Positions 35,505-38,373 of a stretch of DNA of 64,000 nt are shown one piece after another. Under the pieces are notes generated by a model that worked only from the letters and a program-made list of their open reading frames with translations, made no database searches and was not told the DNA's origin. Made by a program: the position numbers and the translations under genes. Location of the stretch: assembly GCA_045646945.1 (NCBI GenBank), contig JAZRLS010000022.1, forward strand, positions 1,181-65,180. The letters run 5' to 3'. This stretch comes from Eubacteriales bacterium (lineage in GTDB: Bacteria; Bacillota; Clostridia; Oscillospirales; CAG-272). Every line of letters starts with the position of its first letter. The first letter of the stretch is position 1.

Positions 35505-36173
35505 ATGGGCTTCGGCTTGCTTTTTATCGGATATTTCGTTGCAAATTTGATGACGTTAAATCCGCTTGGATCAATTTTTCGAATTCTTGGATACGGAATC
35601 ATTCTTGTATCGATTTTAAAGCTTCGAAAATACCATCACGCGTTTCTGTTATCCGTCTTTACAACGCTATGGATGCTTTTGGTTGCGGGAGCATTTGTTT
35701 TTGCTGATATTACGGGTGTTTATCGGAATATCATCGGTTACATAGAGCAGGGCAGTTCCTTTCTATTTCTCACGTTGCTTTTATATGCAGTTTGGAAAAT
35801 TTCCAAAGAAACGGGCGTAAAAAAATTGGCAGATTCCTCGATACGGAACTTTATTTTCATTTCTTTTTACTATGCTGTTTGTATTTTAGAATATCTTCCT
35901 TTTGCTGTGATTGATAACATACGAGGAGAACTGAGAATTATTTCCTTGGTTTTGTATTTCTCCTGTATCCTCTTGAATATGCTTCTTTTGGGACAATGTT
36001 ATGCCAATATTTGTGATGAAAAAGATGCTGAAATGTTGAGAAAACCCTCTCGCTTTGCGTGGATCAATCAGTTTCGCGAAGAGTTTGATCGCAGAGAAGA
36101 AAAAGCAAGAGCGGAAACTGAAGCATATCGCAAAGAAAAGTTTGAAAAAAGAAATAAAAGGAAAAAAAGATGA
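35505..36173 (+). CDS. Hypothetical membrane protein
   Basis: AAGGAG RBS; about 6 TM segments and a basic C-terminal tail. Confidence 0.75.
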   Translation: MGFGLLFIGYFVANLMTLNPLGSIFRILGYGIILVSILKLRKYHHAFLLSVFTTLWMLLVAGAFVFADITGVYRNIIGYIEQGSSFLFLTLLLYAVWKISKETGVKKLADSSIRNFIFISFYYAVCILEYLPFAVIDNIRGELRIISLVLYFSCILLNMLLLGQCYANICDEKDAEMLRKPSRFAWINQFREEFDRREEKARAETEAYRKEKFEKRNKRKKR

Positions 36174-37603
36174 AACAAAAAAAAGATTTTTTGGGACTTT
36201 CATGGATCATTTTTGCACTTTGTTTTTTATTCAATCCCACCTTACACTTGATCGATCCGCTTCCTGATTTTATCGGATATATTTTCCTTTGTTTGGCATT
36301 TTCCAAATTGGCGGATCTCAATGACGAGATTGAAAGCACTGTTGCTGTTTTTCGTAAAATGATTTGGGTCGATGCTGCAAAATGGCTCGCTATCTTTATT
36401 ACCTTTACTATGTCGGCTTCGGGAGAAAAAAATTCCTCGGTATTGCTTTGGACGTTTGTTTTTGCTACGATAGAACTGATCTTTTTGCTTCCGACCTATA
36501 CAAAACTCTTTGAAGGAATAGCAAAATTAGGATACTTTCATAGCAACACCGCAATTCTCGGTAGGATGAAAAAAGGAAAAAGTGCCACAGATCGGGCAAA
36601 GAGAGCAACGATTATCTTTGTTTGTGTTAAAGCAATTTTTACGGTCCTTCCCGAATTTGCTGATTTGTCGAATGCGGCATATCAAGAAGACAGCGGCTTT
36701 GTCAGTCTCTACCGATATATTGGATTGATGCGTGGCTTCGCTATTTTGGTCGTTTTGATTGTCGGACTGTTTTGGTTTTTCCGTCTACAGCAGTATTTCT
36801 ATCGTTTGCGACACGATCACGAATTGGTTCTTTCACTTTCCAATTCGTATCAAACAAATGTTCAACCGCAGCTTGGAAAGTTTGTTCAAAGAAGATTTAA
36901 AATTTCTTATGTTTTCTTGGTTCTTGCTTTGATTTTCAGTATGGATTATCGCTTGGACGGTATTACGCTTTTTCCGGATATTCTTTCCGCGATTGCCGTG
37001 ATCTTTGTTTTTTTGACGCTATCGCATAATATTTCGCTAAAAAAAGCACCGTGGATCATCGCATCCGGATTTTACTTATTGACTTCGATTGTCTCTTTTG
37101 TGCTTGAGCAAAGATTTTTCTTTCATTATTCTTTTACAACGATCCTTAAAAACGATACGGCGATGATGATTTACAGTGCTTACGTACTTTGTAACTTTTT
37201 GAAGGTTCTTGCTTTTTTGTTGGCATTGTATTTGATTCTTCGTGCACTCTATCAAATCATTCAAATACATACGGGAACAACACTCGGGATAGAATACATT
37301 GACGAGCGAGTCGTGTCGATGGAAAAAGAATTGCATAAGGAGCTTCGTCGTCCCGTCTTTTTGGCTATGATTTCTGCAATTCTTTACGGTATTTCGGATA
37401 TATGTTATGATATATTTGCACCGATGCTCAGTGGAATTTATATGGACGGTTCCGGTGTCTTTGGTACGTTTAGCAACATCCAAAATCATTACGGTTGGCT
37501 CAAAACAACCAATATCCTGATTCTCGCAATTTGTATTGGATTGTTTATTCGTGCAATGTCTTATATTTTATTGGCTATTCGAGAAAAATATATGTTGGAA
37601 TAA
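36170..37603 (+). CDS. Hypothetical polytopic membrane protein with internal duplication
   Basis: ATGA overlap with upstream gene; about 12 TM; IDPLPDFIGY and ITLFPDILSA repeats. Confidence 0.78.
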   Translation: MKQKKDFLGLSWIIFALCFLFNPTLHLIDPLPDFIGYIFLCLAFSKLADLNDEIESTVAVFRKMIWVDAAKWLAIFITFTMSASGEKNSSVLLWTFVFATIELIFLLPTYTKLFEGIAKLGYFHSNTAILGRMKKGKSATDRAKRATIIFVCVKAIFTVLPEFADLSNAAYQEDSGFVSLYRYIGLMRGFAILVVLIVGLFWFFRLQQYFYRLRHDHELVLSLSNSYQTNVQPQLGKFVQRRFKISYVFLVLALIFSMDYRLDGITLFPDILSAIAVIFVFLTLSHNISLKKAPWIIASGFYLLTSIVSFVLEQRFFFHYSFTTILKNDTAMMIYSAYVLCNFLKVLAFLLALYLILRALYQIIQIHTGTTLGIEYIDERVVSMEKELHKELRRPVFLAMISAILYGISDICYDIFAPMLSGIYMDGSGVFGTFSNIQNHYGWLKTTNILILAICIGLFIRAMSYILLAIREKYMLE

Positions 37604-37620
37604 ACTTTATTTTCTCGACG

Positions 37621-37650
37621 GTATATTGGCGTGGATTGTGGCACATACTA
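37621..37650 (+). promoter_or_regulatory. Putative sigma-G (late forespore) promoter
   Basis: GTATA-18 bp-CATACTA, exact match to B. subtilis sigma-G consensus GHATR-N18-CATXHTA. Confidence 0.7.
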
Positions 37651-37767
37651 ACGTCGTACTTCCCAAAGAAGTTACAACGTCACACACTGACGTGCTTTAA
37701 CAGTCCTGTTCCGTCGACCTACGACTGTTATTCTTATTTTTATGTCGACGGAGAAACGGAGCTGAAG

Positions 37768-37923
37768 ATGCAGTACAACAATCAGAACCAAAACAACTCT
37801 CAGAACAATCAAAACAGCAAAAACAACCAGAACAACCAGAATCAGAATAAGCAGAACAATCAAAATCAGCAAAACAATCAGAACCAGAATAATTCTCAGA
37901 ACAAGCAGAACAATAATCGCTAA
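37768..37923 (+). CDS. Small Asn/Gln-rich peptide (51 aa)
   Basis: GGAG RBS then ATG; MQYNNQNQNNSQNNQNSKNNQNNQNQNKQNNQNQQNNQNQNNSQNKQNNNR; mixed synonymous codons; own promoter and terminator. Confidence 0.75.
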   Translation: MQYNNQNQNNSQNNQNSKNNQNNQNQNKQNNQNQQNNQNQNNSQNKQNNNR

Positions 37924-37939
37924 AGTTGATGATGGCTTG

Positions 37940-37983
37940 GAAGTTATGGAGATCGGGTATGACTCGATCTCCATAATTTCTTT
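37940..37983 (+). terminator. Intrinsic terminator of N/Q peptide gene
   Basis: GAAGTTATGGAGATCGGGT-atg-ACTCGATCTCCATAATTTC then TTT. Confidence 0.8.
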
Positions 37984-38015
37984 GGATTCTTTTTCGATAA
38001 AATTTCAAAATCCTA

Positions 38016-38044
38016 TTGAAAAAATAACAAAAATCTGCTATACT
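38016..38044 (+). promoter_or_regulatory. sigma-A promoter of SRP RNA / dnaX
   Basis: TTGAAA-17 bp-TATACT with TG extension. Confidence 0.7.
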
Positions 38045-38070
38045 ATATAAGTAAGTTTCCTTTGGGAAAT

Positions 38071-38373
38071 GCAGACTGTGAAATAAGGCCATACCAGCCG
38101 GGGAATTAGCGGAGCCCTGTACCTGAAATCCGCTACAGCAGGGGTGCATTCCTTTTTTGAGGGTTGATCCGATACGGTCTGAGTCGTGTCCTGCTGCGTT
38201 GAAGAGCGGGTCTTGCGCAATTGGGCGCTGTGAACCATGTCAGGTGGGGAACCAAGCAGCATTAAGCAGTAAGCCCGATGTGCCGCGAGGTAGCCTGCTT
38301 GGAGCAGGAGGAGCGAAGATCGCGTAAAGGTGAGATTCGATCTTAAGGTGTATGGTCTTCTTTTGCAGTCTGC
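38071..38373 (+). ncRNA. ffs: Large (Bacillus-type) signal recognition particle RNA, precursor boundaries approximate
   Basis: Helix 8 motif TGTCAGGTGG-GGAA-CCAAGCAGCA; terminal pairing GCAGACTG/CAGTCTGC and GGCCATAC/GTATGGTC; about 300 nt; directly upstream of dnaX. Confidence 0.9.

Follow-up and report, generated by a model that had tools for sequence, protein, structure and literature searches.

What does a short reading frame that encodes almost nothing but asparagine and glutamine do in a clostridial genome, and is it a gene at all? The frame lies in the window, the whole 64,000-nucleotide stretch of DNA that was analyzed here. An earlier note, made from the letters of this DNA, had placed three elements in front of it: a GTATA-N18-CATACTA promoter, a leader of some 110 nt and the ribosome-binding site (RBS) GGAG. 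All three were seen at 37621-37761; the leader, counted from the predicted start (~37658) up to the ATG, measures about 110 nt. The translation of 37768-37923 (MQYNNQNQNNSQNNQNSKNNQNNQNQNKQNNQNQQNNQNQNNSQNKQNNNR) agreed with the described 51-aa peptide of 82% Asn+Gln and with its residue counts, namely 26 N, 16 Q, 3 S, 3 K and one each of M, Y and R (82.4% N+Q). The proteome-wide N+Q of the same genome is 6.7%. The peptide has a net charge of +4 and no acidic residues. The synonymous codons are mixed, as had been described (AAC 15/AAT 11, CAG 12/CAA 4, TCT 2/AGC 1). The terminator was also recovered, and only its length changed: the stem, put at 19 bp before, has 20 pairs by folding, including three G-U pairs (z = -5.9), and none of 200 shuffles was equally stable. 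The features are listed in Table 1.

Table 1. Features of the Asn/Gln (N/Q) gene unit in the window.
Feature	Position	Strand	Basis
-35 element GTATA, forespore-type (sigma-F/G class) promoter	37621..37625	+	read directly
-10 element CATACTA, 18-nt spacer after the -35	37644..37650	+	read directly; best site in the genome, 21.3 bits
Two small 5'-proximal leader hairpins (37658-37672 and 37677-37693)	37658..37693	+	minimum-free-energy fold
Leader hairpin P1 (37698-37705 pairs with 37723-37730)	37698..37730	+	covariance model R1 match
Pseudoknot helix, UUCCGUCGAC (P1 loop, 37709-37718) with GUCGACGGAG (37744-37753)	37709..37753	+	
Shine-Dalgarno (SD) GGAG, 6 nt 5' of ATG 37768	37758..37761	+	read directly
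ORF of the 51-aa peptide, stop codon included	37768..37923	+	read directly; frame, start and basic C-terminus kept in 73 ORFs
Intrinsic terminator, 20-bp stem (37939-37981) and U-rich tail	37939..37995	+	fold, -30.1 kcal/mol

On the 5' side, secA is followed by two membrane-protein genes that occupy the interval between secA and the N/Q cassette. These genes (35505-36173 and 36170-37603, + strand; 222 and 477 aa) overlap. Neither had a Pfam or NCBIfam family above threshold, and the second is kept in congeners. On the 3' side, the large SRP RNA (38089-38355, 156 bits) is followed by dnaX, ybaB and recR. The SRP RNA has its own sigma-70-like promoter at 38016-38044 with a near-consensus extended -10 (TTGAAA-17-TATACT). 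This RNA (window 38016-38355, + strand) is of the large Bacillus type and showed very deep coverage in a gut metatranscriptome run, as expected. With its own promoter, RBS and terminator and with unrelated neighbours, the unit stands alone, as had been claimed. The 51-aa ORF is very probably a real monocistronic gene that is absent from the annotation.

The next question was whether the ORF belongs to a family. A DNA search of 41 relatives gave matches to the leader and the ORF, and 11 further loci, one of them in another genus, carried an N/Q-rich ORF in the same frame. A degenerate QNNQNQNN pattern was also scanned over one genome per prokaryotic species and matched at least 120 loci. Among the matches listed, a small ORF of at least 60% N+Q was present at 43 loci (length rule 25-95 aa; 27-72 aa after start refinement), and all 43 of these were in records named as Clostridia. 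The carriers listed include Faecousia, Ruminococcus, Acutalibacteraceae, Oscillospiraceae, Acetatifactor and Zhenpiania, and among isolates Pseudoflavonifractor sp. MSJ-30 (L035), Porcipelethomonas ammoniilytica (L086) and Clostridiales bacterium strain 16 (L149). The remaining listed loci, in Bacteroidales and others, were N/Q tracts that form part of larger proteins, or short stretches in which no such ORF exists. The congeners and the Clostridia records among the pattern matches listed together gave a family set of 73 distinct CDS, whose members are related to one another, and counts over them are not independent. The 73 ORFs are 27-72 aa long, with a median length of 47 aa and a median N+Q of 83%. 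The earlier note had named loss of the frame in relatives as one of the findings that would overturn it; the frame is kept in all 73.

The family is spread patchily through endospore-forming Clostridia. Within the genus, the pattern with up to two mismatches was found in 30 of 72 genomes, and a reversed-pattern control in one of 72. The number of genus carriers stays at about 30 of 72, since two pattern matches had no N/Q ORF and two genomes were added through the leader. In an even sample of the order, a small N/Q ORF was confirmed in 7/151 genomes and 4/30 families; the other 20 pattern-positive genomes had no such ORF, and the control pattern matched seven genomes. At the site syntenic to 37604-38015, three congeners (L010, L012 and L013, in genomes G024, G023 and G012) lack the entire cassette, some 370 nt from the promoter through leader and ORF to the terminator. 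There, the end of the membrane-protein gene (...TKYMLE*) directly abuts the SRP RNA promoter. Presence or absence of the cassette is thus a clean difference inside one genus. SpoVAD was kept in all five high-quality congeners without a detectable copy of the gene. The N/Q gene is accessory, being absent at the same site in sporulation-competent congeners. This status, the basic charge of the peptides and the conserved pseudoknot leader described below were not in the earlier note.

Two other kinds of small N/Q-rich ORF were also seen. Bacteroidales/Prevotellaceae MAGs (L033, L037, L066, L092, L097, L102 and L148) carry a recurring 32-40-aa ORF, e.g., MFIGFKNITAVQLNNNQQQNNQNQNNQVPMVIPFDRSGM, in which hydrophobic ends flank a central N/Q tract; its context is unrelated to the Clostridia family. 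Virgibacillus xinjiangensis (Bacillales; L070) has a 41-aa ORF, MLQNNQNQNNQNSQYNQNAQQMLETYTGTNTSPQQSDSQYS, with 49% N+Q, within a 104-codon open frame. This ORF may be a relative of the gamma-type small acid-soluble spore protein (SASP) or a separate Q/N-rich spore peptide.

The promoter indicates when the gene may be used. The exact GTATA-N18-CATACTA string occurs once in the 2.0-Mb genome, which taken alone is near the chance expectation. GNATA-N17/18-CATACTA was sought within 200 nt 5' of the ORF in 53 family members, two others having been dropped for short flanks. At least 9 of 11 motif positions matched in 44/53 ORFs, compared with 6.1% of shuffles and 4/53 reverse complements, and at least 10 of 11 matched in 27/53, compared with 0.5% of shuffles. 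The window promoter matched this motif at 11/11. The promoter is beyond chance because it is conserved in 44 of the 53 related ORFs. The family sites fall into two ranges of distance upstream of the ATG, 21-60 nt and 100-170 nt, and their -35 motif, G[TAG]ATA, is well kept (G 90%, A 97%, T 94%, A 97%; 43 sites). A matrix made from the 43 sites found 95 matches of at least 13 bits in the own genome; the window site ranked at the top, but it is part of the training set. Of the 60 best-scoring sites, 46 could be assigned an ORF with a crude rule. Pfam was run on 20 of the 46 ORFs, picked by eye, and identified SpoVT, SpoVAD, SpoVAC, GerA and SpoIIR, together with an M23 peptidase that bears a membrane segment at its N-terminus (SpoIIQ-like), DUF378, SpoVG and a Mn catalase. 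The genes of SpoVT, SpoVAD, SpoVAC, GerA and SpoIIR are classical forespore genes of B. subtilis and C. difficile. The available text of Saujet 2013 backs this forespore assignment in part. The same text describes the consensus sequences for sigma-F and for sigma-G as nearly alike, a G upstream of the -10 marking sigma-F and an A downstream marking sigma-G.

In the window, GGCA before CATACTA is sigma-F-like and the final A is sigma-G-like, and the family matrix shows both. Because the window promoter has features of both, sigma-G is inseparable from sigma-F here. By its motif, the promoter is of the forespore class (sigma-F/G) and is conserved across the family. The earlier assignment to sigma-G held for the class and not for the individual factor. 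Its gene content marks the genome as that of a spore-former: it includes a sigG-like gene (389 bits), one alpha/beta-type SASP gene and the gene of the protease GPR. The sole alpha/beta SASP gene (C16:64297-64470, - strand; L029) had no canonical GNATA-N17/18-CATACTA within 100 nt, and a weaker candidate promoter lies about 165 nt upstream. The genome gives no internal sigma-G-only reference because this gene lacks the canonical motif. Two other ORFs of the genome, of 64 aa (C68:1450-1641, L157) and 57 aa (C15:30582-30752, L156), lie behind forespore-type sites of 20.2 and 17.5 bits, respectively. They have no Pfam family and are candidates for further spore proteins absent from the annotation.

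Between promoter and start codon lies a structured leader. In relatives, the P1 loop UUCCGYCGAC is complementary to GUCGRCGGAG, which stands directly 5' of AAACGGAG-N6-AUG; in the window leader, the pseudoknot strand GUCGACGGAG contains the upstream GGAG. Across eight leader sequences, 87% of cells could pair, compared with 24-54% when the partners were slid. The covariance model R1 matched the window at 37696-37770. On the genus it gave 21 matches of at least 24.5 bits in 21/72 genomes, and an N/Q ORF lay immediately 3' in 21/21. In an alignment of 23 rows, 85.9% of cells were paired overall (slid controls 29-54%), and 10 of 18 pairs varied on both sides, compared with a shuffle mean of 5.2 and none of 500 shuffles that high. 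For P1, six of eight pairs varied on both sides in the 23 sequences, in an alignment that was fitted to P1 and so favours it. The pseudoknot helix is outside the model; there 90.7% of cells were paired (slid controls 29-54%) and 4/10 pairs varied on both sides. Inspection by eye of the relatives' leaders also shows a hairpin just past the predicted start. The minimum-free-energy structure contains an alternative fold that hides the true SD; 67% of its cells were paired (slid controls 30-46%), and the two pairs that varied on both sides compare with a shuffle mean of 2.1. As judged from the covariation of P1 and the pseudoknot helix, the leader folds as a pseudoknot that adjoins the RBS, which is new here.

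In the own genome, the R1 motif was found only at the N/Q gene. In the order sample, R1 matches of 22-33 bits occurred in 17 other genomes ahead of other genes. As named by eye from translations, these genes include PPDK (L232, L235 and L236), rpmJ (L233, L244 and L245), enolase (L241) and a YicC-like gene (L250). An 8-nt complement of the SD-flanking sequence lay within the hairpin loop in 11/19 order-sample matches, compared with 15/700 shuffles. Leaders of other families show a loop CCGNNNN facing NNNNCGG just 5' of AGAAAYGGAG and a start codon, also at L249, L238 and L234. Rfam 15 gave no match at E <= 1 over 37600-37770 and none at E <= 0.1 on related leaders. A glutamine-sensing riboswitch (glnA RNA or Downstream-peptide motif) was considered and rejected on these two grounds, the missing Rfam match and the like leaders before unrelated genes. 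Because such leaders precede unrelated genes, the leader is not a sensor specific to the N/Q peptide. It is probably a general SD-adjacent pseudoknot module that tunes mRNA stability or translation, and such leaders may form a general class in the order that was not previously described.

Could the DNA do without the peptide? The ORF has tandem-repeat periods of 6, 9, 15 and 18 nt, so a slippage-prone trinucleotide repeat might be taken for a gene, or the product might be a Leu/Val/Ile-rich antisense protein. An antisense frame spans the repeat in 47/70 loci, and in the window it is 100 aa long (37672-37974). This frame is bound to be open, since on the opposite strand the Asn and Gln codons read as Val/Ile and Leu. 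An SD-like sequence lay 5-16 nt upstream in 69/73 sense ORFs and in only 6/70 antisense ORFs. The promoter, RBS, ATG, basic C-terminus, stop codon and terminator are all oriented on the + strand and conserved; a terminator-like hairpin was found within 100 nt in 54/72 family members, compared with 87/360 shuffles. Slippage is opposed by the codons themselves. Over the 3403 internal codons of the 73 CDS (N 51.6%, Q 30.4%, K 6.2%, S 3.4%, R 3.1%), Gln CAR was used 1036 times and His CAY once, Lys AAR was tolerated (210), no ORF had an in-frame stop and no CAR had turned into TAR. The codon record points to selection on the protein and not slippage, as the earlier note had argued, and a locus with no gene for the N/Q peptide is very improbable. 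A different possibility is that the ORF is made only to be translated, as a leader peptide in which stalling on Asn/Gln codons senses Asn-tRNA/Gln-tRNA while the hairpin attenuates the downstream gene. The run of Asn/Gln codons, the hairpin shortly after the stop and the structured leader would suit such a role, and at one locus (L061) a type III glutamine synthetase gene is nearby. That gene is convergent, and so is the next gene at 22 of 37 loci, with the same strand at the other 15 (none was called at 6 of 43). Pfam on 28 of these 37 neighbours gave an AddA-like helicase, ThrE, ABC transporters, SpoIVB, RF-1 and others, which are mutually unrelated, and the unit in the window is followed by the SRP RNA, which has its own promoter. 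Conserved peptide ends and a sporulation-specific promoter of the N/Q gene also speak against this role. We reject the leader-peptide role because of this gene context, convergent and with unrelated neighbours, and consider attenuation hardly credible.

Having taken the ORF as a gene, we asked why it had been missed. Four family peptides matched no Pfam family at E <= 10, and the window peptide matched no Pfam or NCBIfam model at that cut-off. Twenty sequences were looked up in a collection of 15 billion proteins: 17 came from 17 different loci, as N/Q peptides or their longer start variants, and the other three were the window's 142-aa TTG-start form and its two antisense ORFs. None (0/20) was found as an exact sequence, which bears out the earlier expectation that gene callers miss the ORF. 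A protein similarity search produced 671 word-sharing candidates, none at E <= 0.001 or E <= 10, and a six-frame protein search of 72 genus genomes returned the query itself only. Its shortness and low complexity let the gene slip past callers and profile libraries as well as similarity searches. In a search of sequencing runs, one RNA-library run (X8) had contigs over 37810-37902 at a likeness of at least 85%, with the leader uncovered. These contigs were not counted as transcription, since unrelated sequence may gather on a low-complexity repeat. The literature yielded no account of such peptides or their leader, where a mention in the supplements of small-protein catalogues is possible, and the strings QNNQNQN, NQNNQNNQ and NQNQNNQN occurred in no paper anywhere in the full text.

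In this study, we believe that the gene makes a SASP-like peptide of the forespore. Genes of the ssp type are monocistronic, with a forespore promoter, a strong RBS and their own terminator. The window ORF, with its forespore-type promoter (sigma-F/G class) and its own terminator, has an SspE-like layout. The SASP-like reading is preferred because this anatomy mirrors that of ssp genes, and because SASP genes are sigma-G dependent and easily gained and lost while none of the clostridial genomes examined has SspE, as stated in Galperin 2012 (PMC3533761). RNA polymerase with sigma-G or its near twin sigma-F would transcribe the N/Q gene in the developing forespore, and we regard forespore expression as likely. 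The structured leader, with its 5' hairpins and the pseudoknot adjoining the RBS, would most likely tune mRNA stability or translation. The peptide would then most likely build up in the spore core in the manner of SASPs. It is probably disordered, and its small size and basic charge would make it acid-soluble. General peptidases would degrade it at germination to Asn and Gln, supplying amide nitrogen and amino acids for outgrowth, and the stored peptide may double as a hydrophilic filler. The GPR cleavage motif is E-F/I-A/G-S-E-F/T. This site is absent from the window peptide, which has no E, F or A, so that breakdown would need proteases other than the GPR encoded in the genome. The whole account, i.e., a forespore SASP-like peptide behind a tuned leader, a non-homologous analogue of gamma-type SASP that serves as a reserve, is given a probability of about 0.5. 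The reserve role taken separately is proposed tentatively. The earlier note's own proposals, a spore nitrogen store or an amyloid- or condensate-forming peptide, likewise stay hypotheses. The accessory state of the gene, its low frequency in the order (7/151 genomes) and the missing GPR site speak against the account as a whole.

The charge of the peptides leaves room for another function. All 73 family peptides have a positive net charge (+1 to +5), K+R make up 9.3% of residues and are spaced along the chain, and the chain ends in R in 39 peptides, in F in 12 and in K in 10. The regular K/R and the net positive charge would be as compatible with nucleic-acid binding or solubility as with storage. 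The forespore peptide might therefore be mainly physical and no nutrient reserve at all: a polar hydrogen-bonding matrix (a reversible polar-zipper gel or glass former) that helps to immobilize the dehydrated core, or a basic coat on DNA or RNA. The extreme N/Q content, the near absence of hydrophobic residues and the single alpha/beta SASP gene in the genome are consistent with this. Work on yeast prion domains indicates that short length and charge oppose amyloid-like assembly, and peptides of 27-72 aa with regular charges should assemble poorly. The gene is also dispensable in sporulation-competent congeners. The Asn-rich repeat region of C. difficile GerG gels in vitro according to the available part of Donnelly 2017 (PMC5241399), but the same source describes GerG as a sigma-E mother-cell protein whose repeats are dispensable for function. 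A mainly physical role is judged unlikely. Lower still do we rank a combined picture, in which the spores of many gut Clostridia hold basic, near-pure Asn/Gln peptides that form a reversible gel or glass in the core and afterwards serve as an amide-nitrogen reserve, with synthesis timed by a pseudoknot leader that is one of a general class. If that speculation were true, the peptides would be a new class of spore protein that aids dormancy and resistance and is dissolved and consumed on germination.

The locus has several implications. The inventory of clostridial spore-core proteins rests largely on Bacillus homology, and a conserved, probably highly expressed forespore gene can evade callers, profiles and similarity searches. 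If the peptide is made, it alters the spore parts list of abundant gut anaerobes. It also offers a natural experiment on how near-pure Asn/Gln peptides behave in a dehydrated cell, and it warns that low-complexity filters conceal genuine bacterial genes. The leader adds a pseudoknot module, not previously described, to the RNA repertoire of the order.

Among known systems, the leader is comparable to the H-type pseudoknot riboswitches (preQ1, SAM-II and SAM/SAH), in which a hairpin loop likewise pairs next to the Shine-Dalgarno sequence across an A/U-rich linker. It differs from them in that Rfam 15 gave no match, and in that no ligand pocket is evident because the junctions are not conserved. 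Leaders of the present kind also precede unrelated, highly expressed genes (PPDK, rpmJ and enolase). The Q/N-rich prion domains of yeast share a composition dominated by Asn and Gln. Such domains combine high N+Q and few charges with a length of about 60 aa or more and form self-templating amyloid. The N/Q peptides are shorter, are whole proteins and carry regular positive charges; their composition fits the prion-like criteria, and their K+R content and median length argue against. GerG, which resembles the predicted N/Q product, is a sporulation-induced clostridial protein with Asn-rich repeats of variable number and a prion-like prediction; it is larger, combines about 30% Asn with Met, Pro, Ser and Gly, and occurs only in C. 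difficile (PMC5241399). The N/Q family, in contrast, has a forespore-type promoter and is made of N+Q with K/R.

The minor SASPs of Bacilli (SspG-SspP and Tlp) and the alpha/beta-type SASPs (PF00269), which resemble the predicted N/Q product, are short, forespore-expressed, stand-alone and patchy (Galperin 2012, PMC3533761). The window peptide matched none of the alpha/beta-type or Ssp/Tlp profiles of Pfam or NCBIfam at E <= 10. The alpha/beta SASPs are folded DNA binders of conserved sequence, whereas the N/Q peptide is pure low complexity. The gamma-type SASP of Bacillales (SspE, PF04259) resembles it in being small, Q/N-rich, of low complexity, without a fold of its own and encoded by a monocistronic forespore gene. 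According to Setlow's work, gamma-type SASP reportedly serves only as an amino-acid reserve. There is no sequence relation between the two. SASP_gamma had no match in the own genome at E <= 1, with the B. subtilis control above the cut-off, and this result and the peptide's lack of E, F and A for a GPR site uphold the earlier statement that the peptide is not an SspE homologue. The absence of SspE from clostridia, also stated before, agrees with Galperin 2012 and with the own genome. Compared with SspE, the N/Q peptide is far more extreme (82% N+Q), always basic and found not in Bacillales but in Clostridia, where the niche of the gamma-type SASP is left open because SspE is reported to be absent.
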